The notes: generated by a model from the sequence alone, not told the origin. A DNA stretch of 64,000 bases from an uncultured Ignavibacteria bacterium (GCA_964607165.1 CAZSIT010000006.1:11870-75869); one strand, 5' to 3'; numbered from the stretch's first letter, positions 1 through 42,369 are shown. Translations and numbers: made by a program.

Positions 1-2540
1 AGCTGGACTATTAGTGGTGGCGGCGGCACCATAATAGGCTCCTCGACCGGCCAATGTGTTACCGTTCAAGCAAGCGGAACCTGCGGAACTTCTTATACCT
101 TAAATTTAACGGTCACCGGCGCCTGCGCCAGCAGCTGCAGCAAAACGGTTCTGGTTAAAGACAACATTAAGCCGACTATTGTCTGTCCGGCCGATATCGT
201 CGCCAGCAACGGCAACTGTTGCGCTAACGTCAGCTTTGCTCCCACCGTTAACGATAATTGCTCGGCAACCTTTGTCTGCACGCCTCCCTCCGGCTTCTGC
301 TTCCCGGTGGGAATGACCACCGTCAAGTGCGTGGCAACGGATGTTTGCGGCAACAAAGATAGCTGCACCTTCAAGATTACGGTCACCGATACGACCAAAC
401 CGACTATCGTCTGTCCGGCTAATATTGTTAAGAACACCGATCCGGGTCTGTGCTGTGCGGCGGCGACTTTTGCGCCCACCACCGGCGACAACTGCCCGGG
501 ACAAACCTTTACTTGTACTCCCCCTTCGGGCACCTGCTTCCCGGTCGGCGTGAATCCGGTAAAGTGTGTGGTGACCGATGCGGCGGGTAACAAGGATAGC
601 TGCAGCTTTACGGTTACGGTTACCGACAATTCCAAACCGACCATTGTCTGCCCGTCCAACATCAGCAAGAGTAACGATCCCGGTCAGTGCTGCGCGGCGG
701 CGACCTTTGCGCCCACCACCGGTGACAACTGCCCCGGAGAGACCTTTAGTTGCACGCCCCCTTCCGGCACCTGCTTCGGCATTGGGACGACTCCGGTCAA
801 GTGCGTGGTGACTGATGCGGCGGGTAACAAGGACAGCTGCACTTTCACGGTGACGGTCAGCGACACCGAGCCGCCTTCCATAGTTTGTCCGGCCGACATC
901 GTGGCCAGCAACGGCGGTTGCTGTGACGTCGTCAACTTTGCACCCACCGTTTCCGACAACTGCCCGGGAGAGACCTTTGCCTGTGTTCCGCCCTCCGGCT
1001 TCTGCTTCCCGGTCGGGATGACCACGGTAACCTGTACGGCCACCGATGCCGCAGGCAATCAAACTCCCTGCAACTTCAAGATTACGGTCACCGATACGTC
1101 CAAACCGACTATCGTCTGCCCGGCTAATATTGTTAAGAACACCGATCCGGGCCTCTGCTGTGCGGTGGCGACCTTTGCACCTACCACCGGCGACAACTGC
1201 CCGGGAGAGACCTTTGTCTGCACGCCTCCTTCCGGCTTCTGCTTCCCAGTCGGCGTGAATCCGGTCAAGTGCGTGGTGACCGATGCGGCGGGTAACAAGG
1301 ACAGCTGCACCTTCACAGTGACGGTCAGCGACAATTCCAAACCGACCATTGTTTGCCCGGCCAACATAACCAAAGGCACCGACCCCGGTCTGTGCTGTGC
1401 CGTGGCGACTTTTGCGCCTACCACCGGCGACAATTGCCCGGGAGAGATTTTTACCTGCACCCCGCCTTCCGGCACCTGCTTCGGCATTGGGACGACTCCG
1501 GTCAAATGCGTGGTGACTGATGCTTCCGGCAACAAGGACAGCTGCACTTTCACGGTGACGGTCAGCGACAACTCCAAACCGACCATTGTTTGCCCGGCCA
1601 ACATTACCAAAGGTACCGACCCCGGTCTCTGCTGCGCGGTGGCGACCTTTGCGCCAACGGTTGGTGATAATTGCCCCAATCCAACCTTCGTTTGCACGCC
1701 GCCTTCCGGCACCTGCTTCAACAAGGGAACGAATACTGTTAAATGTGTGGTGACCGATGCTTCCGGCAACAAAGACAGCTGCACGTTTACGGTAACGGTC
1801 AATGACAATACCAAGCCGACCATCACCTGCCCGGCCAATATCACCAAGGGCACCGACCCCGGTTTGTGCTGTGCGGTGGCGACCTTTGTACCTACGGTTG
1901 GTGACAATTGTCCCGGCCAGACTTTCACCTGCACGCCACCTTCCGGCACCTGCTTTAACGTCGGAACAAACACCGTTAAGTGCGTGGTGACCGACGCCGC
2001 CGGCAACAAGGACAGCTGCACCTTTACCGTAACGGTTACTGACAATACCAAGCCGAACATCGCCTGCCCGGCTAACATCACCAAGGGCACCGACCCCGGT
2101 CTCTGCTGCGCGGTGGCGACCTTTGCGCCAACGGTTGGTGACAATTGTCCCGGCCAGACTTTCACCTGCACGCCGCCTTCGGGAACTTGCTTTGCGATCG
2201 GGACAACCACGGTTAAGTGTGTGGTAACCGACGCCGCAGGCAACAAGGACAGCTGCACCTTCACGGTGACGGTCAATGACAATACCAAGCCAAGCATAGT
2301 TTGCCCGGCCAACATCACCAAAGGCAACGACCCCGGCCAGTGCTGTGCGGTGGCGACCTTTGCGCCGACGGTTGGCGACAACTGCCCTGGCCAGACTTTC
2401 AGCTGTACGCCACCTTCCGGTACCTGCTATCCGCTCGGCGTGAATACGGTCAAGTGCGTGGCAACCGACGCCGCCGGCAATAAAGACAGCTGCACCTTTA
2501 CGGTCACCGTCAACGATACGACCAAGCCCTCCATCGCCTG
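1..2540. repeat. Tandem coding repeat array, period 237 nt (79 aa), at least 11 units, several nearly identical at nucleotide level
   Basis: Recurring nt blocks ...aaaccgaccattgtttgcccggccaacat(c/a)accaaaggcaccgaccccggtctgtgctg... at about 237-nt spacing. The antisense long ORFs (106..2841 and others) are by-products of the repeats. Confidence 0.85.
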
Positions 2541-4563
2541 CCCGCCTGATAAAATAACGCCTCCAAGACAACCCGGAGTCTGTCCGGGCCCGGTGGTGAC
2601 CTATGAAGTACCGGCCACAGACAATTGCCCCGGTCCAATTACTGTAAATTGTATACCTCCATCGGGTTCGGCTTTCCCAGTTGGCATGACTACAGTTAAC
2701 TGCACCGCTACCGATGCCGCTGGCAATCAGAGCTCTTGCAGCTTCAAAGTAACCGTGCCGGCAACAGACCCGACATTCTTTGAATGTAAGGATACCGCCA
2801 GCAGCGCGAGTGTAAACGCCGTGGTGCAGATTCCGATACAAATTACTAATCCAAACCCGGCCTTTATTCTAAGCATCTGCGGCGCCACCCGGAATGGGTC
2901 GCCGGCCGTTCCCACCAATCCGCCGGCCATTCAGAACAACAATACTTTGGTTTGGGCGGTAAATGGGGACACCGGTTTCTGGTGCTTCTGCTTGAAACTT
3001 TCCGACGGATGCGATTCCGGCTTCTGCCAGGCATGCATCCAAGTCAACCCGCAGCAGTGTTTCCGGCTCTGCATTGAGACGGTTCATCCGCGGGTTCTGG
3101 GCGGAGATGTGAATGTATATATCAACAACTTGGTTGAAGCTTTCGACCCGGATGTTTTGCCTTACGGCGGGACCGTGGGCGGCTTTTCCTTCCTGCTCTC
3201 CTACGACTGTTCCTGCCTGCAGTTCATCAGCGCGGCAAAGGGAAGTCTGTTGGTTGAGCAGAGATGGGAGTTCTTCACCTACCGCTTTGGCGCATTGGGC
3301 AATGGCAACTGCGGTTCCGGCTGTCCAACCTGTCTGATTCGGATTGTGGCGATTGCGGACATCAACAACTCCAATATTCATCCGCCGCCTCCGCCGCGCA
3401 AGAACAAGGGACAGTGGGTTTGCTTGAAGTTCCGCACCTCCTCTGACCTGCGCTTGGCCGGGCTCTGCTGCCCGATTAACTGGTGGTGGTTCGATTGCTC
3501 CGACAACACCATCTCCGACTGGAGCGGCAACACGCTCTGGATAGTGGACTCTTTGTATACGCCGGAGGGCAATCCGATTGACTTGGCGACCACCTTCCCG
3601 ACGGTCAATGTAGAGGCCTGCAGCACCCTCACCGGAGGACCGGGAAAGCCGACTCCGAAACCGTGCATCATCTTCTGCAACGGCAAGATTTGCCTGCCGC
3701 CGATAGAGTCTTTGGACGACCGGGGTGATATCAACCTGAACGGGCTTTCCAACGAGATTGCCGATGCGGTCTTGTTTGAAACCTACTTCATCTTTGGAAC
3801 CAGCGTGTTCACCATCAGCGTGCCAGGCCAGACCGCCGCTACCGACATCAACGGCGACGGCCGCCCCTTGACGATAGCCGACCTGGTGGCTTTAACCCGC
3901 ATCATCACCGGTGACGCCAACCCGCTGCCCAAGGCCAATGCCGGCTTGGCTTCGGTTGACTTGAACTGGAGCTCGGACGGCAAGGAGTTGAAGTTTACCA
4001 CTTCCAGCACTTCCGAGATAGGCGGCCTCTTCGTACGCTTTAAATACAGCGGCGACGCCTCCGAACAAAACCTGTCGGCTCTGGCAAACTCTATGAACCT
4101 TAAAGCCAACGTGGCTGAAGGCGAATTAAGAGTATTGATTAACTCCGACATCAAGGGAGCGATGATTCCGGCCGGCAAGGCGACCTTTACGGTGCCGATA
4201 GATGGAGAAGTTGAGTTCGTAGAAGCTCAAGCTTCCAACTATTTTGGCCAGAGCCTGCCGGTGGTGAACAAGGCGACGCCGATACCGACCGCTTTTGGAT
4301 TGAGCCAGAACTATCCCAATCCGTTCAATCCAAAAACCAACTTTGTGCTCGCCTTGCCGGTGGCCAGCCACTACAATGTGACCATCTACAACCTGCTGGG
4401 CGAAGCGGTGCGCACCTTTGAGGGTGATGCTGCAGCCGGCAACAAGGTCATTACCTGGGATGCCACCGACCGCAACGGCAACGCGGTTTCTTCGGGACTT
4501 TACTTCTACAAAGCGGTCGCCGGACAGTTTGTGGCCAAAAAGAAAATGATTTTGATGAGGTAA
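1..4563 (+). CDS. 5'-truncated giant secreted surface protein: at least 12 tandem HYR (hyalin-repeat) domains, Ig-like region, cohesin-like module, dockerin-like Ca-binding module, second beta-sandwich, T9SS C-terminal sorting domain
   Basis: Frame 1 is open from nt 1, with no stop before the listed 307 start. Repeating 79-aa unit CPANI..DPGxCCAxATFAPTxGDNCPGxTFxCTPPSGxCF..VKCVVTDAAGNKDSCTFTVTV matches the HYR consensus. FSFLLSYDCSCLQFISAAKG...CLIRIVAIADINN resembles the cohesin strand 4-5 motif. DINLNGLSNEIADAVLFETYF...DINGDGRPLTIADLVALTRIITG matches dockerin repeats. The C-terminus NYPNPFNPKTNF...YFYKAVAGQFV...KKMILMR is a T9SS CTD. Confidence 0.8.
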   Translation, partial: SWTISGGGGTIIGSSTGQCVTVQASGTCGTSYTLNLTVTGACASSCSKTVLVKDNIKPTIVCPADIVASNGNCCANVSFAPTVNDNCSATFVCTPPSGFCFPVGMTTVKCVATDVCGNKDSCTFKITVTDTTKPTIVCPANIVKNTDPGLCCAAATFAPTTGDNCPGQTFTCTPPSGTCFPVGVNPVKCVVTDAAGNKDSCSFTVTVTDNSKPTIVCPSNISKSNDPGQCCAAATFAPTTGDNCPGETFSCTPPSGTCFGIGTTPVKCVVTDAAGNKDSCTFTVTVSDTEPPSIVCPADIVASNGGCCDVVNFAPTVSDNCPGETFACVPPSGFCFPVGMTTVTCTATDAAGNQTPCNFKITVTDTSKPTIVCPANIVKNTDPGLCCAVATFAPTTGDNCPGETFVCTPPSGFCFPVGVNPVKCVVTDAAGNKDSCTFTVTVSDNSKPTIVCPANITKGTDPGLCCAVATFAPTTGDNCPGEIFTCTPPSGTCFGIGTTPVKCVVTDASGNKDSCTFTVTVSDNSKPTIVCPANITKGTDPGLCCAVATFAPTVGDNCPNPTFVCTPPSGTCFNKGTNTVKCVVTDASGNKDSCTFTVTVNDNTKPTITCPANITKGTDPGLCCAVATFVPTVGDNCPGQTFTCTPPSGTCFNVGTNTVKCVVTDAAGNKDSCTFTVTVTDNTKPNIACPANITKGTDPGLCCAVATFAPTVGDNCPGQTFTCTPPSGTCFAIGTTTVKCVVTDAAGNKDSCTFTVTVNDNTKPSIVCPANITKGNDPGQCCAVATFAPTVGDNCPGQTFSCTPPSGTCYPLGVNTVKCVATDAAGNKDSCTFTVTVNDTTKPSIACPPDKITPPRQPGVCPGPVVTYEVPATDNCPGPITVNCIPPSGSAFPVGMTTVNCTATDAAGNQSSCSFKVTVPATDPTFFECKDTASSASVNAVVQIPIQITNPNPAFILSICGATRNGSPAVPTNPPAIQNNNTLVWAVNGDTGFWCFCLKLSDGCDSGFCQACIQVNPQQCFRLCIETVHPRVLGGDVNVYINNLVEAFDPDVLPYGGTVGGFSFLLSYDCSCLQFISAAKGSLLVEQRWEFFTYRFGALGNGNCGSGCPTCLIRIVAIADINNSNIHPPPPPRKNKGQWVCLKFRTSSDLRLAGLCCPINWWWFDCSDNTISDWSGNTLWIVDSLYTPEGNPIDLATTFPTVNVEACSTLTGGPGKPTPKPCIIFCNGKICLPPIESLDDRGDINLNGLSNEIADAVLFETYFIFGTSVFTISVPGQTAATDINGDGRPLTIADLVALTRIITGDANPLPKANAGLASVDLNWSSDGKELKFTTSSTSEIGGLFVRFKYSGDASEQNLSALANSMNLKANVAEGELRVLINSDIKGAMIPAGKATFTVPIDGEVEFVEAQASNYFGQSLPVVNKATPIPTAFGLSQNYPNPFNPKTNFVLALPVASHYNVTIYNLLGEAVRTFEGDAAAGNKVITWDATDRNGNAVSSGLYFYKAVAGQFVAKKKMILMR

Positions 4564-4704
4564 CTCGATGCGGCATCCGGCCGCTTCTAACAACAACTCC
4601 CGACGAAACTTGTTCCAAAGGGTGGTTTGGGAGGCTCAGGATATAACAGCCCGCCGCAAGGTGGGCTGTTATATTTTTGGAGGTTTTTGCAGAAGAACAA
4701 AAAA

Positions 4705-7683
4705 ATGACATCGAAAGCGTCTTTAATTCTCTTTTCTGCTCTGGTTTGGGTAATTCCTGCCTTCACCCAAGCCGCCATTCCCGACCCAAGAGATTCGGTT
4801 ATCGTCGAGCAGAAAGTCGTGGCTCCGGTTTTTGGCGCTTGCGCTTCTGCGCCGATAAAGGTGCGCGTTTGGGTCACGAACAAAGACAGCCTGGCTAATG
4901 TTACTTTTCCTTTAGAGGAAAAAAGCATTTCCGGCGGTGCTTACGCTATCATATCCCGTCCAGCTAATTGCTCGTCTGCTCGAACCAGTTCGACGGTGTT
5001 TGACTTTCTTTACCCGCCTGGACCCGGGACTGCACGCTTTCCTACCCGGGTCCCCAGTTTCAGTGGTTACCACAGCAACTCGCCAGATACATTTATGTTC
5101 ACAGGCACTTGCGACCCTACAGATGACGATACCAAATTGCCACCTAACTTAACCCGCGCAGCACTGTTGGATATCAAATTTGATAGTGTTACCGGTTTAG
5201 GCCAATTCCAAATCGACTCAACCAAGGTCCTGGGGAACACCTTACAGTTCGTAAGCACGTCGGGGAACGCAATTTTTGTCAACTTCGTCACAGGGATTAT
5301 CGCCAGCTGTGTTCCACATCAGCCCTTTAATAATTGTCAAGGTGCTAGTTCCAGTGTGTTATATGGACGGCCCTTCAATTACGTTTTCGCTTTGGGGGAT
5401 GTGCCAGGGACATATTCAGTAGTCTCCGGCCCAGGAACGATTGATGTCACCGGCTACTATACTTTTGCCGGTCAGTGCCCCCTGGATTTGGGCGGCATTC
5501 CGGTAACGGTTCGGTTTACCAGTAATACCCCACCCGGAGAGTGTGGTAGCGGGTCCGGCGATTGTCAATTCACAATCAAAGTGGTCGACAACCCGCCAGT
5601 CTGTTCACCCAACCAACCAAATATCACCGTTCCTCACGGTACTTTGGCCCAAAACATCATTACCGCTACAGACCCAGACTCGGGAGATGGGACAATAATC
5701 TCTCAATCAAGTGGCCCGGGGGCGGTCGTGGATAATGTGAATGGAACCGCTGACTGGAACTATCAGACTTCCTGCGAGGACGTGGGGCGCTCTCCACAAG
5801 AAGTGAATTTTTTGGTCAGGGATAAATTTGGCTCCTGCAATCCCGGCCCTTCTACCGCCGCCTGTCTTTTCTTTTTGGTTGTTACTAACGCTTCGCCGAG
5901 TATAACCAACTGCCCTTCAGAAACGATTTCTTTGCGGGGCGGTGAGCCGTTTAGTTTGGATTTGAACGCAACCGACACCGACCCGGGTGACAGCGATATA
6001 GATAATCATTTCTTTTTGAAAAGCGGCCCGGCCGGGTTAACCGTTTCACCATCCGGCGTAGTAAATTGGACACCAGATCTCACTCAAACCGATACCTGCG
6101 CGGTCATTGGCGTAAGCGATGCCTGTGGAGCCGCCGACAGCTGTGTAGTCTGCTTCGACGTCGTTTCCGGCCAGAAATTCCGTCTGTGCATTGACGTGGT
6201 TCATCCGCGTTTCCAGGGTGGTGATGTTAACGTTTACATCAACAACCTGGTGGAAGCCTTCGACCCGGACTGCGACACCGCCCACGGCGGCAGCGGCTGT
6301 GTGGGCGGCTTCTCCTTCCTGCTTACCTACGACTGTTCCTGCCTGCAGTTTATCAGCGCGTCCAAGGGACAGTTGTTGATCGACCAGCGCTGGGAGTTCT
6401 TCACCTACCGCTTCGGCGCTTTGGGCAACGGCAACTGCGGTTCCGGCTGTCCAACCTGTCTGATTCGGATTGTGGCGATTGCCGATATCAACAACAGCAA
6501 TATTCATCCGGTACCTTGCCCGCGCCCGAACCAGGGTCAGTGGGTGTGCTTGAAGTTCCGCACCTCCTCTGATTTGCGGTTGGCCGGGCTCTGCTGCCCG
6601 ATTAACTGGTACTGGCTGGATTGCACGGACAACACTGTTTCGGATGCCACCGGCAATTGCCTCTGGATTGCCTGCGCGATTTTGAACACGGACGGGGATA
6701 CCTTACCCCTGCCGACCGAACCGGTCAACGTGTACAACTGCAGATTCAATTCGGGTGGCGAAAACAAGCCGACTCCGAAGCCGTTCATCATCTTCTGCAA
6801 CGGCCAGATTTGTCTGCCGCCTTTGGAGTCCTTGGACGACCGCGGAGACATCAACCTGAACGGTTTGGCCAACGAGATTGCCGACGCGGTCTTGTTTGAA
6901 AGCTACTTCACCTATGGTACCAGCGTGTTTGTAATCAACGTGGCCGGCCAGACCGCCGCTACCGACATCAACAGCGACGGCCGTCCTTTGACGATAGCCG
7001 ACCTGGTGGCTCTGACTCGCATCATCACCGGCGACGCCAACCCGCTGCCCAAAGCCAACGCCGGTGCTGCTTCTGTTGACCTAAACTGGAGTTCAGACGG
7101 CAAGGAGTTGAAGTTTACCACTTCCAGCACTTCCGAGATAGGCGGCCTCTTCGTACGCTTTAAATACAGCGGCGACGCCTCCGAACAAAACCAATCGGCT
7201 TTGGACAATTCTATGAAGCTTAAGGCCGGCGTGGCGGAAGGCGAATTAAGAGTATTGATTAACTCCGATGTCAGGGGAGGTATGATTCCGGCCGGAAAAG
7301 CCACCTTTACTGTGGCGATAGAAGGAGAAGTGGAGTTTGTAGAAGCTCAAGCTTCCAACTATCAAGGCCAGAGCCTGCCGGTGGTAAACAAAAAGGCGGC
7401 TTTGCCCACTTCATTCGCTTTAAGCCAGAACTATCCTAATCCGTTCAATCCGAAGACCAACTTTGTGCTCTCCTTGCCGGTGGCCAGCCGTTACAAGGTA
7501 ACCATTTACAACCTGCTGGGCGAAGCGGTGCGCACCTTCGAAGGTGATGCTGCGGCCGGCAACAAGGTCATTACCTGGGATGCCACCGACCGCAACGGAA
7601 ACACGGTTTCTTCGGGAATTTACTTCTACAAGGCGGTAGCCGGACAGTTTGTCGACAAGAAGAAAATGATTTTGATGAGGTAA
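4705..7683 (+). CDS. Secreted T9SS cargo protein, paralog of the upstream gene: signal peptide, Ig-like/cadherin-like N-terminal domains, then the same cohesin-like, dockerin-like, beta-sandwich and T9SS CTD cassette
   Basis: ATG at 4705 gives MTSKASLILFSALVWVIPAFTQA, a signal peptide. The ORF-track start at 4627 is probably upstream of the true start. The C-terminal 500 aa are nearly identical to the C-terminus of the first protein. The T9SS CTD NYPNPFNPKTNFVLSLP...KKMILMR is present. Confidence 0.8.
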   Translation: MTSKASLILFSALVWVIPAFTQAAIPDPRDSVIVEQKVVAPVFGACASAPIKVRVWVTNKDSLANVTFPLEEKSISGGAYAIISRPANCSSARTSSTVFDFLYPPGPGTARFPTRVPSFSGYHSNSPDTFMFTGTCDPTDDDTKLPPNLTRAALLDIKFDSVTGLGQFQIDSTKVLGNTLQFVSTSGNAIFVNFVTGIIASCVPHQPFNNCQGASSSVLYGRPFNYVFALGDVPGTYSVVSGPGTIDVTGYYTFAGQCPLDLGGIPVTVRFTSNTPPGECGSGSGDCQFTIKVVDNPPVCSPNQPNITVPHGTLAQNIITATDPDSGDGTIISQSSGPGAVVDNVNGTADWNYQTSCEDVGRSPQEVNFLVRDKFGSCNPGPSTAACLFFLVVTNASPSITNCPSETISLRGGEPFSLDLNATDTDPGDSDIDNHFFLKSGPAGLTVSPSGVVNWTPDLTQTDTCAVIGVSDACGAADSCVVCFDVVSGQKFRLCIDVVHPRFQGGDVNVYINNLVEAFDPDCDTAHGGSGCVGGFSFLLTYDCSCLQFISASKGQLLIDQRWEFFTYRFGALGNGNCGSGCPTCLIRIVAIADINNSNIHPVPCPRPNQGQWVCLKFRTSSDLRLAGLCCPINWYWLDCTDNTVSDATGNCLWIACAILNTDGDTLPLPTEPVNVYNCRFNSGGENKPTPKPFIIFCNGQICLPPLESLDDRGDINLNGLANEIADAVLFESYFTYGTSVFVINVAGQTAATDINSDGRPLTIADLVALTRIITGDANPLPKANAGAASVDLNWSSDGKELKFTTSSTSEIGGLFVRFKYSGDASEQNQSALDNSMKLKAGVAEGELRVLINSDVRGGMIPAGKATFTVAIEGEVEFVEAQASNYQGQSLPVVNKKAALPTSFALSQNYPNPFNPKTNFVLSLPVASRYKVTIYNLLGEAVRTFEGDAAAGNKVITWDATDRNGNTVSSGIYFYKAVAGQFVDKKKMILMR
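6178..7683. repeat. About 1.5-kb duplicated 3' gene cassette (partner copy 3061..4563), about 85-90% nt identity with embedded 50-115 nt stretches of 100% identity
   Basis: Identical runs such as aactgcggttccggctgtccaacctgtctgattcggattgtggcgattgc and ggcaaggagttgaagtttaccacttccagcacttccgagataggcggcctcttcgtacgctttaaatacagcggcgacgcctccgaacaaaacc occur in both copies. Confidence 0.9.
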
Positions 7684-7814: not shown

Positions 7815-9212
7815 ATGAAATTGTCTTATCTTCGCCAAACCGCCCTAAAAATCGCCAAAAAAATCTCATTCTTAATTTTTGCTATCCTTTTGCCTGCTTT
7901 GGCTTCCGCCCAGCCACCCCCATCGCTGACCGATTCGCTGATTCTCGACTGGTGGATATTCGTTCCTGCCGGTCAAACGACCGTCTCGGTCCAAATTTCT
8001 TTGACCAATTCCGTGCCGATTTCCGGCATAACCGGACGAATGGTTTTTGACAACGGTATTTTATCCCCGATAATCGATTCCATTTCCGGCTTTGTTTCGG
8101 CAGAACGGGTTGGGCGAGGGATGGCACTCTCAAATTTCGCTGCCAGGTCACCCCAGCCGGGTGTAATTACTTTCCTTATGCTCACCAATTTTTTCCCAAT
8201 AGAGAAAATCGAGCCGGGCAGTGGCCCCGTCTGCCGGATTAATTTCAACGTCCTCACCGCCAGCGATACCACTACCTGCGTGTATTTTGAAAATGATCCC
8301 GATCCGATTGGCATCAGAAACCAGCTTTCTGACGCCAACGGCTATATCGTTATCCCCTCCCTCCAACCGGGAAGTTTGGTAATCGGGATAGGTAGTCCGA
8401 CCGGCAGTTGCTTTCCAGTCGAACCAATTGACAACACCGGCGATTTGAACTTGAATGGATTGCCATACGAAATCGGCGATTTTGTAACGTTTGAAAATTA
8501 CTTTATATATGGGGATGCAGTTTTTAACATAAACCCAACCGAGCAAGCTCTTGCTTCCGACGTTAACCGGGACGGCCTACTGCTGCGCGTTGCCGACCTG
8601 GTCTTTTTGGAACGAGTCATTCTCGGCGAGATTAATCCCCTCCCGGCACAAACTATTGCATCGGTTTCGGACACGGCTCAATTCGAAATAGTCCAAACCT
8701 CCGACCAATTGGTTCTTTCCTACGCCTCCCCAATCGATTTGAGCGGCTTTTTCCTGCGCCTGACGTTCCTTGGCACGGCTGGAGACCCAATCCGCCTGGA
8801 CTCGTCTCCCAATATGGATTTTGGCAGCCAAATATATCCCGGCGAACTGCGCTTCCTTTTGGTTTCTTCCCTTCAAACCCCTTTGGGGAAAATTCCCGCG
8901 GGCAGCGGGCCTTTGCTTTCCATCCCGTTTAACGGCAATTTAAGAGGCGTTGAAATACAAGCTTCGACCACGGAAGGGGAGGAAGTGGCAACCACCGGCT
9001 CCTATCCCATCGACAGCCGCGGGGACCTGAATGCCGACGGGCTTCTTACCCCCTCCGACGTCGTATCGGAGCTTAATTGTGCACTTGTATCCGCTTTGAA
9101 TTGTCCTCTTTCCCTGACGGATTTGACCTGTGATGGAATGCTCACCACCTCTGATGTAGTCCTTATCTTGAACGCGACATTCTTAGGAGAAACTCTACCT
9201 CAATGTCCTTGA
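7815..9212 (+). CDS. Secreted adaptor-like protein: signal peptide, cohesin-like module, internal dockerin-like module, second beta-sandwich, C-terminal double dockerin repeat (no T9SS CTD)
   Basis: GGAGG lies upstream of the ATG at 7815. MKLSYLRQTALKIAKKISFLIFAILLPALASA is a signal peptide. TTVSVQISLTNSVPISGITGRMVFDNGILSPI...GPVCRINFNVL is cohesin-like. DLNLNGLPYEIGDFVTFENYF...DVNRDGLLLRVADLVFLERVILG is homologous to the dockerin module of the two upstream genes. The C-terminus is DLNADGLLTPSDVVSELNCALVS...LTCDGMLTTSDVVLILNATFLGETLPQCP. Confidence 0.7.
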   Translation: MKLSYLRQTALKIAKKISFLIFAILLPALASAQPPPSLTDSLILDWWIFVPAGQTTVSVQISLTNSVPISGITGRMVFDNGILSPIIDSISGFVSAERVGRGMALSNFAARSPQPGVITFLMLTNFFPIEKIEPGSGPVCRINFNVLTASDTTTCVYFENDPDPIGIRNQLSDANGYIVIPSLQPGSLVIGIGSPTGSCFPVEPIDNTGDLNLNGLPYEIGDFVTFENYFIYGDAVFNINPTEQALASDVNRDGLLLRVADLVFLERVILGEINPLPAQTIASVSDTAQFEIVQTSDQLVLSYASPIDLSGFFLRLTFLGTAGDPIRLDSSPNMDFGSQIYPGELRFLLVSSLQTPLGKIPAGSGPLLSIPFNGNLRGVEIQASTTEGEEVATTGSYPIDSRGDLNADGLLTPSDVVSELNCALVSALNCPLSLTDLTCDGMLTTSDVVLILNATFLGETLPQCP

Positions 9213-9513: not shown

Positions 9514-9540
9514 AGTCCCGCCAAAAAGCGGGACTTTTTT
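9514..9540 (+). terminator. Rho-independent terminator hairpin
   Basis: agtcccgcc-aaaaa-gcgggact followed by tttttt. Confidence 0.6.
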
Positions 9541-9541
9541 A

Positions 9542-9570
9542 TTGACAAAAAACTTAAAATCGAATAGATT
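9542..9570 (+). promoter_or_regulatory. Sigma70-like promoter: TTGACA, 17-nt spacer, TAGATT
   Basis: TTGACA at 9542-9547 and TAGATT at 9565-9570, immediately upstream of the riboswitch. Confidence 0.5.
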
Positions 9571-9582
9571 GACGGTTGCAAA

Positions 9583-9745
9583 AGTTTCGGCGCTCGTCGA
9601 GCTTAATAGGGAAGGCGGTTAAAATCCGCCGCAGCCCCGCTACTGTAAGCAGCCGAGCCCGCCGCAAAAAGCCACTGTCCGCCGGAGGCGGATGGGAAGG
9701 CGCGGCGGGTTGCTGTAAGCCAGGAGACCTGCCGGAACAAGAACC
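9583..9745 (+). promoter_or_regulatory. Cobalamin (B12) riboswitch
   Basis: Conserved blocks AATAGGGAAGGCGGTTAAAATCCGCCGCAGCCCCGCTACTGTAAGC and the B12 box GCCAGGAGACCTGCC sit in the 5' leader of a TonB-dependent receptor gene. Confidence 0.85.
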
Positions 9746-9767
9746 ATAAACCTTCGCGGGAAGGAGA

Positions 9768-11963
9768 ATGGAAAGTCTATTCTCGCCCAAGGCGGGAATT
9801 TTTTTTCGCCTTCGGGAAACAGTCAAACTCCTCGTCGCCCTATTGGTGGGGACATCTGTTCCTTTATGGGCGGAATCTAACCTTAAAATCTCCGGTCAAA
9901 TTTTTGATCGTAACACTGGGCAGCCCTTAGGCAGTGTTACCGTCAGAATCATTGAAAGCGGAAATCAAACAAGCACCGATATGCAAGGGAGGTTTACCTT
10001 TTACGATTTGCCAGAAGGAAAGTATCGCCTTGTTTCTAATCCTCCCTCCTATCGTGCTGAAACACTCACTGTAAAAGTTTCCACCGCCGGAACAGCTGAA
10101 ATAGCGTTTTGGCTCGAACCGGAGCCAATAACCGGCCCACCCACAATAGTGACGGCTGACATTACAACCGAGGCAGCTTTGGAACCGAGCTTAGTTTTCA
10201 CGCGCTCGGATATGGAGAAATCGAAAAATCTTTCGATTGCACAATTTCTTTCACATCAGCCCGGGTTGGACATAAAAACGGGCGGAGTTTACGGCTCGAC
10301 GGAAGAGGTGACCATTCGAGGCGGCGCCGCCAATCAGACGCTGGTGCTTTTCGATGGCCGGCCTTTAAACTCCAATCTGGGCGGAACGGCCGATTTAAGC
10401 TTCGTCAGACTGGCTAATCTCGAAAGAATCGAGGTGTACAAAGGAAGCCAAACGGCGCGTTTTGGGCCGGATGCAGTCGCCGGTGTTGTTATTTTAACTT
10501 CCAGAAAGCCGAATCCCCAAGAGCATTTGACTCCACAAATTTCCTATGAAAAAGGAAGTTTTGGATACCAATCAACAAACTTTGAATCGAATCTTGCTTT
10601 CGTACCAAACGCATCCGCCAACATCTTTTATCAAAATCTTTCTAACCGAGGCGATTTTACTTATGCAGATAAAAACGGTGATTATGAGAGGGTGAACAGC
10701 TACGTTTGGACCAACCGGGCAAATGGAAAATTAAGCTATGGAAATTTTGAAACCGCTTTTTTCTGGGCTAAAGCCCGGCGCGGGCTTCCGGGAGCGCTGC
10801 TCCAGCTTACGCCAAACGCCCAAGAAAAAGATGAACGATTTGGAATAACCTTAAACCGGAAGCTGTATTCAAACAGGGGGTGGTTTTTTGAGCCTTCAGC
10901 GAGCTGGGATAAACTTACCCAAAGCTTCAAATTACCTGATGGATTTGTAAAAACTGACACTCGTTATAAAACTGAAAAAAGAAAGCTGGAGACGGGTGCG
11001 GGAAAACGTTTGACAAACCAAAAGTATCAAATCAGTTTTGATTTTCTCGAAAGCTCTTTAAAAGGAGAGGATTTTATCCGACCCAGTCAAAGCCTGGGAA
11101 AGACCATTCGTCGTTCGGGTGGCCTTTCCGCGGCCTTCGACCGGCAAGTGCCGTTCAAAGGCCATTTGTCGGCCAGCGCCTCGGGCGCGTCGAGAATGGA
11201 TTGGACCGACTTCACAAAGCCGGCTTACTCTCCCCTTCTTTCGGCCGCTTTGAATTATGACAAGAAAATCAAAACGAGAGTTTTTGGCTCCTGGGGTAAA
11301 AGCTTCCGGCTGCCGACTTTAGACGCGCTATTCTGGAAAGAGGATGTTTTTGCCGCCGGCAACCCGGCCCTTCTTCCCGAGCGCGCAGAAAGCCGGGAAA
11401 CGGGTTATCGAATTACTTTCCCAATCCTTGGAAAATTGAACTGGGAACAAAATTTCTTTCATAACGACCTGAAGAATCTAATTATCTGGCAAAGACGGTT
11501 TGACGGGAAGTTCATCCCTCAAAACATTTCCAAGGCCAAAATTTTTGGCCGGGAGGAAAAGGCGCTCTGGCAGCTCTCCAAAATTCTTGAACTGGAATTC
11601 AACCATACCCAAACCGAGCCAATAAACGAGGAGGATTTTGTTCTGCATCAAGGAAAACAATTGGTGTTTCGACCGCGACATATTTACAATGCGCGTATTG
11701 CCGCCAGCTACAAAATTGCCACTTTAAATCTAACTGGCCGTTGGGTAAGCAAGCGATTCACCCGGGCTGAAAACACAAAATATTTGCCACCTTATGAAAC
11801 CTACGACGCCTTCTTTGCATTAGCTCCAAAACTCCGGAAATTCAACTGGAACTTTTCTTTAGCCATCGAAAACTTTACAGGCAGACAGTATGAAATTTTA
11901 GAACGTTACCCGGTGCCGTGGCGCAGTTTCAAATTTTCGCTGGAAATCAAATGGAGGGATTAA
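9768..11963 (+). CDS. btuB: TonB-dependent outer-membrane receptor (BtuB-like cobalamin receptor) with N-terminal carboxypeptidase-regulatory-like domain
   Basis: AAGGAG RBS. Signal peptide, CarbopepD_reg-like N-terminus (ISGQIFDRNTGQPLGSVTVRI...GKYRL), plug/TonB-box region (TIVTADI...), 731 aa, C-terminal aromatic residue. A cobalamin riboswitch lies directly upstream. Confidence 0.75.
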   Translation: MESLFSPKAGIFFRLRETVKLLVALLVGTSVPLWAESNLKISGQIFDRNTGQPLGSVTVRIIESGNQTSTDMQGRFTFYDLPEGKYRLVSNPPSYRAETLTVKVSTAGTAEIAFWLEPEPITGPPTIVTADITTEAALEPSLVFTRSDMEKSKNLSIAQFLSHQPGLDIKTGGVYGSTEEVTIRGGAANQTLVLFDGRPLNSNLGGTADLSFVRLANLERIEVYKGSQTARFGPDAVAGVVILTSRKPNPQEHLTPQISYEKGSFGYQSTNFESNLAFVPNASANIFYQNLSNRGDFTYADKNGDYERVNSYVWTNRANGKLSYGNFETAFFWAKARRGLPGALLQLTPNAQEKDERFGITLNRKLYSNRGWFFEPSASWDKLTQSFKLPDGFVKTDTRYKTEKRKLETGAGKRLTNQKYQISFDFLESSLKGEDFIRPSQSLGKTIRRSGGLSAAFDRQVPFKGHLSASASGASRMDWTDFTKPAYSPLLSAALNYDKKIKTRVFGSWGKSFRLPTLDALFWKEDVFAAGNPALLPERAESRETGYRITFPILGKLNWEQNFFHNDLKNLIIWQRRFDGKFIPQNISKAKIFGREEKALWQLSKILELEFNHTQTEPINEEDFVLHQGKQLVFRPRHIYNARIAASYKIATLNLTGRWVSKRFTRAENTKYLPPYETYDAFFALAPKLRKFNWNFSLAIENFTGRQYEILERYPVPWRSFKFSLEIKWRD

Positions 11964-11967
11964 AACC

Positions 11968-13167
11968 GTGAGAAGATTTTTATCATTGTTTCTATTTATC
12001 TTCGTGTTCTTCTGCTATCACCTAATCTCTGCTCAAAGCGCTCGATTGTGGGTGGTGAATGGTTTGGCAGAAACCGCCAGCCGCGTCATTTTAGATAGCG
12101 GAAATGTATCTAACCATATAATTACGCTCGGTTTGATACCCAACCAAATAGTTTCGGAAGGCAATTTTCTCTTGGCCGTAAACTCCGGCTCCAATAATAT
12201 TCAGATTTTCAACCGCCACACGCTGGCCGAAATCGGAACCGTCGAGCTTGGGGCTAACCGAAATCCCTGGAATTTGGTTATGGCCGATTCGACAATCGGC
12301 TATGTGACTAATCTGGTAACCGGAACGGTGTCTAAGTTCAACCGGTTGAGTAGAACAGTACTGAAAGAGTTTTCGGCGGGTCAATCTCCAGAAGGTATTA
12401 CTTATGCCAAAGGGAAAATTTGGGTTTGCAATACGGCATTTAATCCCAACAATTTTTCATACGGCCAAGGCGAAATAGCGGTAATTGACCCGGTAGCCGA
12501 TTCTGTCGTGAAGAAAATAAACGTGGGAACCAATCCACAGGCCATTAAGCAGGCGCCGGATGGAAAACTCATCGCTGTCTGTACGGGAGACTTCGGTTCG
12601 GTCAGCGGTACGCTCTATGTTATTGACCCAATTACGGAAACCGTAACGGATAGCATTCTGACCGGAGGCACCCCCTCCACCGCTGCGGTCACCCACACCA
12701 ACATCGCCTATCTGCCGGCGGGCGGTTTTGTGGGCAGCGGTCTGCTGTTCAAGGTGAACCTGAATACAAAAACGGTTGAACGCGGCCCGGGAAATCCAAT
12801 TTTGGTGGGAACGGGAGCGACGGATGCCATCTACGATATTGACAGCAATTATGTTTATGTAGCCTGTTTTTCGGACGGAACGGTAAGAAAAATAAACTCC
12901 GCCGACTCGGTGGTAACCAGTTTTTTGGCAGGCGATGGCCCGGTTTCACTGGATATCGCCTATCCTTTTCCGCTGGGAGACTTGAATGGAGATGGCCTGT
13001 CAACCTCCGCCGATGCCGTGATTTTGCTCAACTGCGTCTTTTTGGGATGCGCGCCGCCCCCCCGAAATTCCCAAGCCGATGCCAACCGGGACGGCCTTTG
13101 GACCTCCGCCGACGTGGTGTGCGAACTAAATCACGTTTTTCTGGGAAGCCGATTGCCCTGCCGTTGA
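11968..13167 (+). CDS. Secreted YVTN-family 7-bladed beta-propeller protein with C-terminal double dockerin repeat; candidate BtuG-like surface B12-capture protein
   Basis: Signal peptide. Contains the IGYVTN motif and repeated 40-residue blades. C-terminus DLNGDGLSTSADAVILLNCVFLG...DANRDGLWTSADVVCELNHVFLGSRLPCR. The gene starts 5 nt after btuB, inside the riboswitch operon. Confidence 0.6.
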   Translation: MRRFLSLFLFIFVFFCYHLISAQSARLWVVNGLAETASRVILDSGNVSNHIITLGLIPNQIVSEGNFLLAVNSGSNNIQIFNRHTLAEIGTVELGANRNPWNLVMADSTIGYVTNLVTGTVSKFNRLSRTVLKEFSAGQSPEGITYAKGKIWVCNTAFNPNNFSYGQGEIAVIDPVADSVVKKINVGTNPQAIKQAPDGKLIAVCTGDFGSVSGTLYVIDPITETVTDSILTGGTPSTAAVTHTNIAYLPAGGFVGSGLLFKVNLNTKTVERGPGNPILVGTGATDAIYDIDSNYVYVACFSDGTVRKINSADSVVTSFLAGDGPVSLDIAYPFPLGDLNGDGLSTSADAVILLNCVFLGCAPPPRNSQADANRDGLWTSADVVCELNHVFLGSRLPCR

Positions 13168-13179
13168 GAAAGGAGCGAT

Positions 13180-13530
13180 ATGAAAAAACTTTTCCTTATA
13201 ATTACGATTCTGACCCTAACGATTAGCTGTGGAACAAAGGAAAAAACAGATACATCCGCGCAGCTTGACACCACCCTGACCGTGAGCTATTTTGGCGCCC
13301 AGGGTAAAACGGTGCTCAAACTTCTGGAAACTTCTCACAGAATAGAAAAGAAATCTTCCTCTATTGGAAGTTTTGTGGAATCGATAGATGGCGTGAAAAA
13401 TCGTTCCAATCGTTTTTGGCTCTACTATGTGAATGGGAAAAAACCGGATGTGGCTTCGGATCGATATACGACTCACACAAACGACACCGTTGAATGGCGT
13501 TTTGAAGCCGCGATAAAGGAGGAAAAATGA
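13180..13530 (+). CDS. DUF4430-like small lipoprotein (domain family associated with cobalamin uptake loci)
   Basis: MKKLFLIITILTLTISCG resembles a lipoprotein signal. FWLYYVNGKKPDVASDRYTTHTNDTVEWRF matches the DUF4430 W.YyVNG...Y.l.dgD.i.W.y pattern. Confidence 0.55.
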   Translation: MKKLFLIITILTLTISCGTKEKTDTSAQLDTTLTVSYFGAQGKTVLKLLETSHRIEKKSSSIGSFVESIDGVKNRSNRFWLYYVNGKKPDVASDRYTTHTNDTVEWRFEAAIKEEK

Positions 13531-14021
13531 TTTATCTATTCGCTTTGCTTGCCGTAGTCTTGAGGCTTTTGCCCCACGCCCCCAATTTTGCCCCGATGGG
13601 AGCTTTGGCGCTTTGGGCCGGAATGTCGGGCGACAAAAGAAAAGTTTGGATTCCCTTGCTGGCAGTTTTCTTCAGCGACTTATTCCTGGGTGGCTACCCC
13701 GGTTTTGTTTGGGTTTATGCCTCATATTTTTGCATATTTTTCAGCGGATATTTAACCAAGCAAACTTCCGGCTTGGCCCGATACCTCGGAGCGCCAATAG
13801 CCGGCGCCTCCATTTTTTATTTGGTTTCCAATTTTGGGGTCTGGGCCGGCGGCTCGATGTATCCGGCGACCCCGGGCGGCTTGGCCCAATGCTATGTGGC
13901 CGCCCTGCCGTTTTTTCGCAATACCCTGGCGTCGGATGCCTTGTATTTCAACGCTTTCATCCTCCTTAACAAAATCTTTGCAACGCTAAAAAATTATCAA
14001 TTGGCGTTAAGGTTTCGTTAA
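13527..14021 (+). CDS. Small polytopic membrane protein, possible ECF-type S-component / BtuM-like solo vitamin transporter
   Basis: ATGA start/stop overlap with the upstream gene. 164 aa with about 5 hydrophobic helices. LPHAPNFAPMGALALWAGM is reminiscent of S-component motifs. It is the last gene of the B12 riboswitch operon. Confidence 0.4.
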   Translation: MIYLFALLAVVLRLLPHAPNFAPMGALALWAGMSGDKRKVWIPLLAVFFSDLFLGGYPGFVWVYASYFCIFFSGYLTKQTSGLARYLGAPIAGASIFYLVSNFGVWAGGSMYPATPGGLAQCYVAALPFFRNTLASDALYFNAFILLNKIFATLKNYQLALRFR

Positions 14022-14035
14022 AAAAATAAAAAAGT

Positions 14036-14070
14036 AAAAAGCCCTTCTCTTTGGAGAGAAGGGCTTTTTT
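14036..14070. terminator. Bidirectional rho-independent terminator
   Basis: aaaaagcccttctc-tttgg-agagaagggctttttt between convergent genes. Confidence 0.7.
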
Positions 14071-14119: not shown

Positions 14120-14827
14120 TCAGTTGCGAACCGAGGTTGAATCACCGGTTTTAGGTGAACCCAGAAATTTCCAATCTGCAAAAGCCGGCATCGTATCTTT
14201 GAAGTTGCTTTCCAGGAAAAACTCGGAGGAGAAAAGAACGGCGACAAACAAATGATTATTCTTTCGAAATACGGTGACAATTTCCGCCCGGAATTCCGAA
14301 CCGGTAATCGGGCCGGCTTTTTGTTCGGAGAAATACTCGGTCATATTCCGTAAAAGGGTCAGCTGCACGCCCGGCTGCCCCGCCACGCTAACCCGGCTGC
14401 GCTTAATTTCCTTGTCGCTGGGGCGCCAGTCCAAAACCTTCAAATATTCTCCTTTGCCTTTCCAGCTCGTTTCCCCAAAAAGACGGTCCAAGAATTGATC
14501 GGGGGAAAAAGAAAGCGTGTCGGCCAGAATCAAAAACCTTGGGCGGGTTCCCGCATTGGAACGTTCGTTGGAAAACCTTGGATTAATTTGAACGTCGCTT
14601 TTTTCCATTGCCACTCGAATTAAGGAAGGCTCATCTTTCACGCGTGCCTTCCATGTTTTCGGCACCGAGGTGGAATAACCAATAAGCGAGTCGCTGAAGG
14701 TATTCTTCTCCAGAACGCCGGTTTTAATCTTATCCTTTGAGAAAGTAATTGGGCTGAAAGCAAACAGGCCAAGCAGGCCCATCAAGAAAATAGACGTTGA
14801 ACGCCGCATACACTCCCCTTTGCTCAA
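14120..14827 (-). CDS. Secreted hypothetical protein (signal peptide), co-operonic with the M48 peptidase
   Basis: MRRSTSIFLMGLLGLFAFSPITFS is a signal peptide. The true start is probably 14809. I recognise no domain. Confidence 0.5.
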   Translation of the reverse strand: MSKGECMRRSTSIFLMGLLGLFAFSPITFSKDKIKTGVLEKNTFSDSLIGYSTSVPKTWKARVKDEPSLIRVAMEKSDVQINPRFSNERSNAGTRPRFLILADTLSFSPDQFLDRLFGETSWKGKGEYLKVLDWRPSDKEIKRSRVSVAGQPGVQLTLLRNMTEYFSEQKAGPITGSEFRAEIVTVFRKNNHLFVAVLFSSEFFLESNFKDTMPAFADWKFLGSPKTGDSTSVRN

Positions 14828-15810: not shown

Positions 15811-16158
15811 CTACAGCTTAATCTTTTCGGCCAAATCTCCCAAAAAAGGAACTTTCCAATCACGGCCCTGGAGCACTTGCAGGACGCCGTAAAACGACGC
15901 CAGCAGAGCCAAAATCAAAACAAATGCCCAAAAATGCTGGGAGATAAAAGGCAAATAAAAAATTAAAGCCAGCATCTCCACCATAAAAAGGACCAGCCCC
16001 TGTTTGCCGTGGCGCAGGGCAAAACTATTATGCCGCATCTTTAAAAGGGGAACGAAACACATAAAAGGGATGTAGGCTAAAAGCGCCGCCGCTTTCCCCT
16101 CTTCTATTTCCTGCGCTTCGGATAAGTTCTCTTTTTTTATGAGCTCTTCAGTACCCAC
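15811..16158 (-). CDS. Small membrane protein (DUF4870-like)
   Basis: Two to three TM helices. Abuts the GH57 stop codon. Confidence 0.45.
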   Translation of the reverse strand: MGTEELIKKENLSEAQEIEEGKAAALLAYIPFMCFVPLLKMRHNSFALRHGKQGLVLFMVEMLALIFYLPFISQHFWAFVLILALLASFYGVLQVLQGRDWKVPFLGDLAEKIKL

Positions 16159-28118: not shown

Positions 28119-28305
28119 AAATAAGCTCCTCTTTTTAACTTCCAAACAAATCACCAACTCACCGGCAAGAACCGGCACTGCCCAACACCCTCAAAAGTAG
28201 TATAAGTCCTAAGACCTTATCTGTCAATCACTTTTTCGGGTTCAACCAGGTCTGAAAGAGGAGGAGCCCCCCCGTAAAAAAAGCTCCGAATAAGTTAGCT
28301 GGGCC

Positions 28306-37856: not shown

Positions 37857-38118
37857 GAAAACTTAGAAACTCTCCATTTGACAGAGCGGAAGAACACTCG
37901 TAACTTAAAGCTTTAATATTTTTGTTTGGTTTTAGAGATTAGCAATTCTATGCAAGCGCTTTCAATGGGATGATTCCCACACTCAAAACCGGGTGATAAC
38001 AAAAAGGCTGACAAACAGTTACTGCTCTAATTTTCTGGTAGTCTTCGGGCACAAAGGTTGCGTGGTTAAAGCACGGGAAAAGCCCCGCAAGCCTGGGGCC
38101 GAAAAAAGGAGAAAACGG

Positions 38119-42014: not shown

Positions 42015-42369
42015 GTCGAACCGCCAAACTCCTATTTTGACCGGCATCTTTTCAATCACGGGGCTTAGTTAATCAAACCCCGTGCCCTTATGCCTGAATT
42101 TGGCAACTATCTAACCCTTTGATTTCTAAGGGGTTACAAACTCGACTTTAGGGTCAGCCGTGTATGTCGGAAAACTTTTCCAAAAAGGGGCGGAAAAAAG
42201 GGGCTTTTTCACAAGCAAGTATGGGAGTTACCCTATAGCAAAAAACAAGATTTTTGCATTTTGAAATCAGTTGAAAAAATGCATAAACAGAATCTTTGTT
42301 TCCCTGTTGCAAGCTAAACAAAAAATTGTGGGTTGATTTTTGAAGGTAAAAGGACGAGATTTTCTGTCG

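Follow-up and report, generated by a model that had tools for sequence, protein, structure and literature searches.

A cobalamin riboswitch and four-gene operon of a Zixibacteria-like bacterium that probably encodes corrinoid import by a BtuB-like receptor, a BtuG-type propeller, a DUF4430 lipoprotein and a DUF6580 membrane protein

The 64,000-nucleotide stretch of DNA analysed here (GCA_964607165.1 CAZSIT010000006.1:11870-75869, referred to below as the window) comes from an uncultured bacterium labelled Ignavibacteria, and the nearest named relatives belong to candidate division Zixibacteria. It carries a cobalamin (vitamin B12) riboswitch followed by four genes, all on the plus strand. The aptamer, at 9571–9750, covers the full RF00174 model (1–189) with 115.4 bits (E 3e-28) against a gathering score of 31.5, and Rfam finds no other riboswitch in the 64 kb. 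The genes that follow encode a TonB-dependent, BtuB-like receptor of 731 aa (9768–11963), a YVTN propeller of 399 aa with a dockerin-like tail and a GTG start (11968–13167), a DUF4430 lipoprotein of 116 aa (13180–13530) and a DUF6580 membrane protein of 164 aa (13527–14021); 4 nt separate the receptor and propeller genes, 12 nt separate the propeller and DUF4430 genes, and the DUF4430 and DUF6580 genes overlap by 4 nt. A first-pass annotation, made from the nucleotide sequence alone, had described a promoter, a cobalamin riboswitch and a tightly packed operon of four genes at this place; its gaps and overlap agree exactly with our coordinates, and the full-length Rfam match bears out the riboswitch. 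The preceding gene is closed by a hairpin and T-run at about 9516–9541, a sigma-70-like promoter (TTGACA-17-TAGATT, 9542–9570, plus strand) predicted by consensus with 10 of 12 matches abuts the aptamer, and a hairpin terminator at 14036–14069, with a 15-bp stem flanked by A and T runs, is common to the operon and the convergent downstream gene.

The riboswitch and all four genes were found again in three related metagenome-assembled genomes (MAGs; our loci L001, L003 and L005), with 65–73% protein identity and aptamers that score 110–116 bits, so the unit is real and conserved; the promoter hexamers are invariant in the alignment of these relatives. Only 17 nt lie between the end of the riboswitch and the receptor AUG at 9768. 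The segment from 9751 to 9807 (plus strand) is probably the expression platform: it holds a hairpin that contains the ribosome-binding site (9751–9764), a terminator-like hairpin with a T8 run (9779–9807) that sits within codons 4–13 of the receptor open reading frame (ORF), and an alternative hairpin that pairs the ribosome-binding site with the AUG. Its DNA is nearly invariant in the three relatives, and the coding sequence downstream of it diverges. The arrangement would probably mean either that the platform acts on both transcription and translation, or that the true receptor start codon lies further downstream.

The receptor has an N-terminal CarboxypepD_reg domain (CarbopepD_reg_2, 3e-14) and a Plug domain (3.7e-22) by Pfam, and a TonB-dependent barrel domain is recorded in orthologues of 65–70% identity. 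Its closest PDB sequences are all BtuB, namely E. coli BtuB (1.4e-19), B. thetaiotaomicron BtuB1 (2.5e-16 over aa 137–729) and BtuB3, in keeping with the btuB-like receptor named in the first-pass annotation. The best NCBIfam model is TonB-B12, with scores that fall far below the equivalog cut-offs (117.6 against 599.7 bits and 95.9 against 836 for TIGR01779 and PRK10641); by best match and context the receptor is BtuB-like, and not a strict equivalog.

The first 335 of the 399 residues encoded by the second gene (11968–12972, plus strand) comprise a signal peptide and a seven-bladed YVTN beta-propeller, in which the YVTN repeat TIGR02276 scores 50 bits against a cut-off of 27.9. An AlphaFold (AF2) model made from 44 homologues has a predicted local distance difference test score (pLDDT) of 94.3 and shows 27 strands, seven four-stranded blades and a three-helix tail. 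When this model was compared with the PDB by Foldseek, the archaeal S-layer YVTN propeller 1L0Q took rank 1, and ranks 2–17 were all BtuG1, BtuG2 or BtuG3 or the B. uniformis homologue 3DSM (PDB codes were assigned to BtuG1–3 through the papers depositing them). The BtuG block spans E 1e-18 to 3e-20 (best 2.6e-20) with template-modelling (TM) scores of 0.75–0.80 normalised to the target and 18% identity; the next match has E 8e-15, weaker by four to five orders of magnitude. A profile of the propeller family gave BtuG1 at 9e-22, BtuG3 at 1e-16 and BtuG2 at 6e-15 in the PDB. Because of this profile match and the Foldseek block, the propeller is classed as a BtuG homologue by profile and predicted fold, and the kinship with BtuG that had been suggested earlier is thus upheld. 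A closer relation to BtuK (DUF5074, BT1486/7) was considered and rejected; DUF5074 matches below threshold, and BtuK2 (4R5O) appears at Foldseek rank 47 with E 1e-11. Loops with the motifs PNQ, NPW, NPQ and CTGD are conserved in the propeller.

BtuG has been defined as a surface lipoprotein exclusive to Bacteroidetes, with a lipobox and an export signal (PMC6143338), and a review from 2026 on B12 uptake in Bacteroides treats relatives that BtuH and BtuJ have in other phyla but is silent on BtuG beyond Bacteroidota (PMC13616437). The window propeller has no lipobox: its plain signal peptide ends in ISAQ/SA, and the context of Cys16 (VFFC) is not conserved among relatives. What it does have, as the first-pass annotation had noticed, is a C-terminal type I dockerin-like module (aa 336–399, 12973–13167, plus strand) with two DxNxDGxxxxxD calcium loops, in the repeats DLNGDGLSTSAD and DANRDGLWTSAD. 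This tail matches the PDB dockerin 2Y3N_B with E 2e-4, and several orthologous propellers exceed the threshold of Pfam Dockerin_1 (PF00404). Homologues of the propeller occur in three forms. The form seen in Zixibacteria has about 400 aa and ends in a dockerin, a second has about 440 aa and a C-terminal sorting domain of the type IX secretion system (T9SS), and a third, of about 340 aa, has acidic residues after a lipobox cysteine. Their gene contexts are alike in being tied to B12. In a second Zixibacteria lineage (L089) the order is riboswitch, DUF6580, TonB-dependent receptor and dockerin propeller; a T9SS-tailed form (L087) stands in riboswitch-...-propeller-receptor-second propeller; a lipoprotein form from Latescibacteria (L088) stands in riboswitch-btuF-btuC-btuD-receptor-propeller-cobC-cobU-cobT-cobS; and in Ignavibacteria and environmental Bacteroidota the propeller that adjoins the receptor and DUF6580 is a lipoprotein of about 350 aa with an acidic post-cysteine motif, the classical BtuG type. 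The exchange of lipid, T9SS and dockerin anchors within one orthologous family is the strongest argument that the dockerin form, too, is displayed at the cell surface; we only infer such display, because it is not obvious how this form would cross the outer membrane.

The first-pass annotation had proposed that the propeller is tethered through a cohesin-like scaffold encoded immediately upstream. The secreted protein in question (7815–9212, plus strand) lies outside the riboswitch unit and has a weakly cohesin-like N-terminal domain, two dockerin-like modules (aa 208–279 and 401–466) and no anchor of its own. Searches of Pfam and PDB sequences with the full-length protein gave nothing significant. 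Its N-terminal domain aligns by BLASTP (E 8e-6) with the cohesin domain of a 325-aa protein in L001, which passes the Pfam threshold (33 bits) and carries a T9SS tail. The gene upstream of the unit differs in each of the three relatives. Support for the scaffold proposal is thus weak, and we regard the protein as no more than a possible docking partner of the propeller.

A T9SS C-terminal sorting domain is also present in each of three large surface proteins of the window (307–4563, with HYR repeats; 4627–7683, with Big_9; and 37993–40017, with BACON_2), and the second of these may have a dockerin-like module, to judge from an iterative search. An 813-aa protein (25737–28178, minus strand) has an LVIVD repeat, CarboxypepD_reg and, at its C-terminus, a dockerin that scores above the Pfam threshold, so dockerin tails are general among the secreted proteins of this genome. 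Cohesin-like domains in the T9SS proteins at 307–4563 and 4627–7683 were suggested by jackhmmer from a relative's cohesin and then discarded: the first-round E was 0.013 and Pfam saw no cohesin in the excised segments, which may indicate profile drift, and we do not rely on them.

The third gene encodes, as proposed earlier, a DUF4430 lipoprotein, with PF14478 at 59.5 bits (E 4.5e-16) against a gathering score of 23.8 and the lipobox LTISC. In a profile of 18 family members W80 and W106 are invariant, and this profile, compared with the PDB, finds the beta-domain of haptocorrin (TCN1, residues 329–433) with E 5.6e-5, that of transcobalamin-2 with 0.018 and intrinsic factor with 0.6. This profile match makes the protein a bacterial homologue of the beta-domain with which the animal carriers contact B12. 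Our literature searches on DUF4430 together with B12, and on CbrS, returned nothing relevant.

The fourth gene encodes a member of DUF6580 (PF20221, 129.6 bits against a gathering score of 27). NCBI labels its relatives "DUF6580 family putative transport protein", and no paper in the literature that we searched mentions the family, which an exhaustive HMMER search shows to be large: 6,752 clusters at 50% identity, 4,996 of them at E ≤1e-10, nearly all single-domain proteins of 165–240 aa. DUF6580 is a six-helix membrane protein whose fold matches all S-components, the substrate-binding membrane subunits of energy-coupling factor (ECF) transporters, and its best structural match is BtuM, ahead of ECF-bound S-components. 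Fourteen residues are invariant (R13, P16, H17, N20, D51, G55, F97, N102, F103, W106, Y112, G118, P128 and F129) and C122 is nearly so. The conserved residues fall in L1, L3 and L5 and at the ends of the helices next to these loops, and the basic residues are in the other loops, a placement that suggests an N-in topology with a conserved pocket facing outward, as in S-components. The first-pass annotation had called this protein a small S-component-like permease that resembles solo ECF S-components such as BtuM and CbrT, and had named ECF_trnsprt (PF12822) and BtuM as the models to search; the S-component fold and the closeness to BtuM in structure support the resemblance, and membership of ECF_trnsprt or the BtuM family is rejected, as Pfam places the protein in DUF6580, no BtuM sequence is matched and the L3 cysteine of BtuM is absent. 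We thus liken DUF6580 to BtuM by predicted fold and by context, not by family membership, and predict that it is an inner-membrane corrinoid permease.

A transporter for this step is wanted in many bacteria: about half of the bacteria that depend on B12 are without BtuCDF, and most of these have no known transporter at the inner membrane (PMC6072759). The scanned window ORFs of at least 150 aa include no FecCD, Peripla_BP_2 or ECF-module gene, in agreement with the earlier remark that the operon is not accompanied by btuCDF; the scope of this statement is the 64 kb window and about 16 kb in each relative. A scan with one genome per species gave 80 loci from many phyla, with DUF6580 placed in 77. 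By nhmmer, a B12 riboswitch occurs in 35 of these 77 loci: in 8 it immediately precedes DUF6580, in 16 it lies upstream with a chain of same-strand genes in between, and in 11 it is elsewhere in the locus; the nhmmer model is sequence-only and these figures are likely undercounts. In the 22 loci that were examined by both methods, all nhmmer hits were confirmed by Rfam. Rfam itself found a cobalamin-clan riboswitch in 11 of 16 DUF6580 loci, and both methods picked up the AdoCbl-II (adenosylcobalamin-type) sites in L010 and L022. The neighbours in the 77 loci include a TonB receptor (29 loci), a propeller (14), DUF4430 immediately upstream (14), a BtuF-like binding protein (7) and BtuC (1). Patescibacteria, whose cells lack an outer membrane, and some of the MAGs with the label Gammaproteobacteria have an operon that encodes NrdJ (class II ribonucleotide reductase), a PduO-type adenosyltransferase, DUF4430 and DUF6580, and no ECF-module gene was seen beside these operons. 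On this pattern of genomic neighbours DUF6580 appears to belong to the B12 regulon across phyla.

Some further features of these loci were recorded. An ORF of 440–466 aa with no Pfam match recurs just downstream of DUF6580 in loci of the Patescibacteria type (L042 7324–8724, L066 6583–7905 and L075 3140–4507); in L075 it directly follows a weak nhmmer riboswitch match (E 2e-4, sequence-only), and it may be a further B12-linked protein. A Diphthami_syn_2 gene (PF01902) lies within riboswitch-receptor-DUF6580 operons of Ignavibacteria (L008 4231–4923 and L024 2824–3612), and in L007 (1632–5060) the class II ribonucleotide reductase upstream of PduO, DUF4430 and DUF6580 is split by an intein with a LAGLIDADG endonuclease.

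Taken together, we think it likely that the unit is a B12-repressed pathway for import of corrinoids across both membranes of a Zixibacteria-like bacterium. When intracellular cobalamin is low, the riboswitch would permit expression of the four genes. The BtuG-type propeller would then capture corrinoid at the cell surface, held there by its C-terminal dockerin, presumably on a cohesin-bearing surface protein, where the Bacteroides protein has an N-terminal lipid anchor, and would hand it to the BtuB-like receptor. In the periplasm the membrane-tethered DUF4430 lipoprotein would take the corrinoid and present it to DUF6580, with which it is translationally coupled, and DUF6580 would move it across the inner membrane in the manner of BtuM or CbrT, replacing BtuFCD. 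B12 binding by each protein, their locations, the order of hand-off, the dockerin-cohesin tether and the energy source are what we infer from the riboswitch, the operon structure, the homologies, the folds and the conserved contexts, and the tether is held with less confidence than B12 import as a whole. The receptor and propeller would form an outer module, found with BtuFCD in Latescibacteria, and DUF4430 and DUF6580 an inner module, found alone in Patescibacteria, the two being joined in the Zixibacteria operon; the occurrence of the former pair in a btuFCD operon and of the latter in organisms without an outer membrane is indirect support for the replacement of BtuFCD.

A number of observations weigh against this pathway, and they are taken up here with the alternatives that they would favour. 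The first concerns the propeller, which could be a periplasmic protein or a generic surface-layer-type YVTN protein with a dockerin-like tail that merely binds calcium, the upstream "cohesin" being a coincidence of neighbourhood. The S-layer propeller 1L0Q, the top match, scores as well as or better than BtuG in both sequence and fold, so part of the similarity to BtuG is a generic YVTN signal. The protein has a Sec signal only, with neither a T9SS tail nor a lipobox to take it across the outer membrane, and for want of an evident route it might be periplasmic. The dockerin itself scores just under the Pfam gathering score (PF00404 on aa 336–383, E 4.9e-4, 20.7 against 22.9 bits), dockerins occur on unrelated window proteins too, and the evidence for a cohesin is weak (excised aa 40–200 of the upstream protein match PF00963 with E 0.0036 and only 17.9 bits, where the gathering score is 24.1), with upstream neighbours that vary among relatives. 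Against this explanation stand the place beside a riboswitch-controlled BtuB-like receptor that is conserved in several phyla, the orthologues with undoubted surface signals (a T9SS C-terminal domain, or a lipobox with acidic export signal), and the BtuG structures that form a tight Foldseek block well apart from other propellers, and we consider it improbable.

It also weighs against the pathway that DUF6580 is without the L3 cysteine of BtuM (Cys80), L3 reading GGYPG and the only conserved cysteine being C122 in L5/H6, and that neither its family profile nor the gene 4 sequence matches the BtuM PDB chains at E up to 10. The second alternative is that DUF6580 is a conventional ECF S-component like CbrT, which would need an EcfAA'T module encoded elsewhere, with DUF4430 as a putative CbrS-like capture partner. 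The only PDB sequence that the DUF6580 family profile matches is CbrT (6FNP_A), at a non-significant E of 0.17. ECF-ribofla_trS (PF07155) matches 2 of 32 DUF6580 relatives (6.7e-5) and ECF_trnsprt 1 of 32 (0.51), though not the window protein, and the fold is that of S-components in general. The Patescibacteria cluster, moreover, parallels the nrdJ-cbrS-cbrT-pduO cluster of L. delbrueckii, which led to the discovery of CbrT (PMC5997447). Against this, no ECF-module gene was found in the window, nor next to DUF6580 in any of the inspected loci, DUF6580 is common in Gram-negative lineages beside TonB receptors, as BtuM is, and BtuM is a better structural match than the ECF-bound S-components. 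Dependence on an ECF module seems to us unlikely.

Finally, the operon might serve only the outer-membrane step of B12 uptake, with BtuFCD or an ECF transporter encoded elsewhere in the genome for the inner step and with DUF6580 acting as a carrier of cobinamide, lower ligand or another precursor, or as a membrane protein that processes corrinoids, for example by decyanation. BtuM is known to carry out decyanase chemistry (PMC6072759), a single 64 kb window of the genome was covered, and btuCDF or an ECF module may lie elsewhere. In an Acidobacteriota locus (L074, 42–6489) BtuF-, BtuC- and BtuD-like genes stand immediately upstream of a riboswitch, TonB-dependent receptor and DUF6580. A BtuF-like protein (Peripla_BP_2) also adjoins DUF6580 in L008 (4983–5981), L026 (2323–3249), L044 (1171–2154) and L060 (6484–7464), with no BtuC or BtuD gene within 6 kb (the domain was confirmed by Pfam for L008 and L026 only). 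With seven such pairings in all, DUF6580 need not simply substitute for BtuCD, and its partner and exact substrate may vary; they hint that DUF6580 may take B12 from different binding proteins, DUF4430 or BtuF-like, according to lineage. On the other side, the hosts of the Patescibacteria-type NrdJ-PduO-DUF4430-DUF6580 operons need the finished cofactor and no other transporter is present in those operons, the transporter genes of L074 lie upstream of the riboswitch and may not be B12-specific, and L074 is the only one of the 77 DUF6580 loci with BtuC nearby, the other 76 being without it. We give a purely outer-membrane role a low probability and favour import across both membranes.

A broader proposal goes further, and we put it forward tentatively, as somewhat short of probable: DUF4430 and DUF6580 could be an unrecognised and widespread two-part cobalamin importer of bacteria without BtuCDF, from Patescibacteria to the Fibrobacteres-Chlorobi-Bacteroidetes (FCB) group, which in Zixibacteria is fused in one operon with a BtuB-BtuG module whose propeller is displayed through a dockerin-cohesin link, and which marks the bacterial origin of the domain that binds B12 in the animal carriers. 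If true, display of the propeller in this way would be the first use of the dockerin-cohesin link in nutrient uptake. Already known were the riboswitch, receptors like BtuB and the notion that a propeller can trap B12. New here are a homologue of BtuG that occurs outside Bacteroidota and is anchored by a dockerin or a T9SS tail, the conserved pairing of DUF4430 with DUF6580, the predicted assignment of the uncharacterised DUF6580 to B12 uptake with BtuM as its closest structure, and the finding that operons for B12 uptake include a bacterial relative of the transcobalamin beta-domain. DUF6580 is thereby given a specific and cheaply testable function and a partner in DUF4430, whose presence in such operons bears on the origin of the animal B12 carriers. 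Predicted B12 traps of the BtuG type would extend beyond Bacteroidota, with a modular surface anchor that may be a lipid, a T9SS tail or a dockerin. For annotation, the links to DUF6580 and DUF4430 would improve predictions of B12 auxotrophy and exchange in uncultured lineages.

Outside the unit, a 235-aa ORF with no family match (14120–14827, minus strand) converges on the operon terminator, and in each of the three relatives an M48 peptidase gene holds the syntenic position; a 115-aa ORF (15811–16158, minus strand) corresponds to a weak MamF_MmsF match in these relatives. Further away, 42340–45303 (plus strand) encodes a single-polypeptide restriction-modification enzyme of the Eco57I/MmeI type with HSDR_N, N6_Mtase, Eco57I and TaqI_C domains.

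Each part of the proposed pathway can be set beside a known system. BtuM of Thiobacillus denitrificans (PMC6072759; PDB 6FFV, 8OVV), a solitary S-component-type B12 transporter and decyanase in which an invariant L3 cysteine ligates cobalt, is like DUF6580 a small six-helix protein of about 20 kDa with the S-component fold; in both the gene stands beside btuB with no ECF module nearby, and conserved residues lie on loops of the outer face (a predicted placement for DUF6580). DUF6580 differs in being a separate sequence family with no cobalt-ligating L3 cysteine, with conserved R13, H17, N20 and D51 and the nearly invariant C122, and with DUF4430 as a partner; it occurs in many phyla including Patescibacteria, whereas BtuM is found mainly in Proteobacteria. 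CbrT of ECF-CbrT from Lactobacillus delbrueckii (PMC5997447; PDB 6FNP) is a B12-specific S-component whose gene cluster resembles that of Patescibacteria, but it needs the EcfAA'T module, of which nothing was seen here, and its sequence similarity to DUF6580 is not significant. The DUF4430 protein shares with transcobalamin, haptocorrin and intrinsic factor (PDB 4KKI, 5NO0, 2PMV) a B12-contacting domain of about 100 residues in which the FW motif containing W80 aligns; the bacterial form, for which B12 binding is predicted, consists of the beta-domain without the alpha-domain, is anchored by a lipid or a helix and is encoded together with a permease.

At the cell surface the comparisons are with anchoring modules and with the Bacteroides B12 system. 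As in non-cellulosomal cohesin-dockerin modules and T9SS-anchored proteins, the dockerin here has two calcium-binding repeats, the cohesin of L001 carries a T9SS tail and T9SS-tailed proteins occur in the window; the window dockerin is on a putative nutrient-capture propeller instead of a glycoside hydrolase, and its partner cohesin is not confidently identified. In BtuB-BtuG of Bacteroides thetaiotaomicron (PMC6143338, PMC10404256), just as in the window, a B12 riboswitch is followed by a TonB-dependent receptor and directly after it a seven-bladed propeller, which in the window is homologous to BtuG1–3 (BT1954, BT1490, BT2095) by profile and fold; environmental Bacteroidota and Ignavibacteria loci have a lipoprotein propeller in the same gene order. 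The window host, by contrast, lies outside Bacteroidota, its operon has no BtuH, BtuJ or BtuK gene, and its propeller has a C-terminal dockerin (a T9SS tail in other lineages) in place of the lipobox and lipoprotein export signal of BtuG. Inner-membrane B12 import in Bacteroides is known by homology only (PMC13616437); the predicted inner-membrane partner in the window is DUF4430 with DUF6580, instead of BtuFCD.

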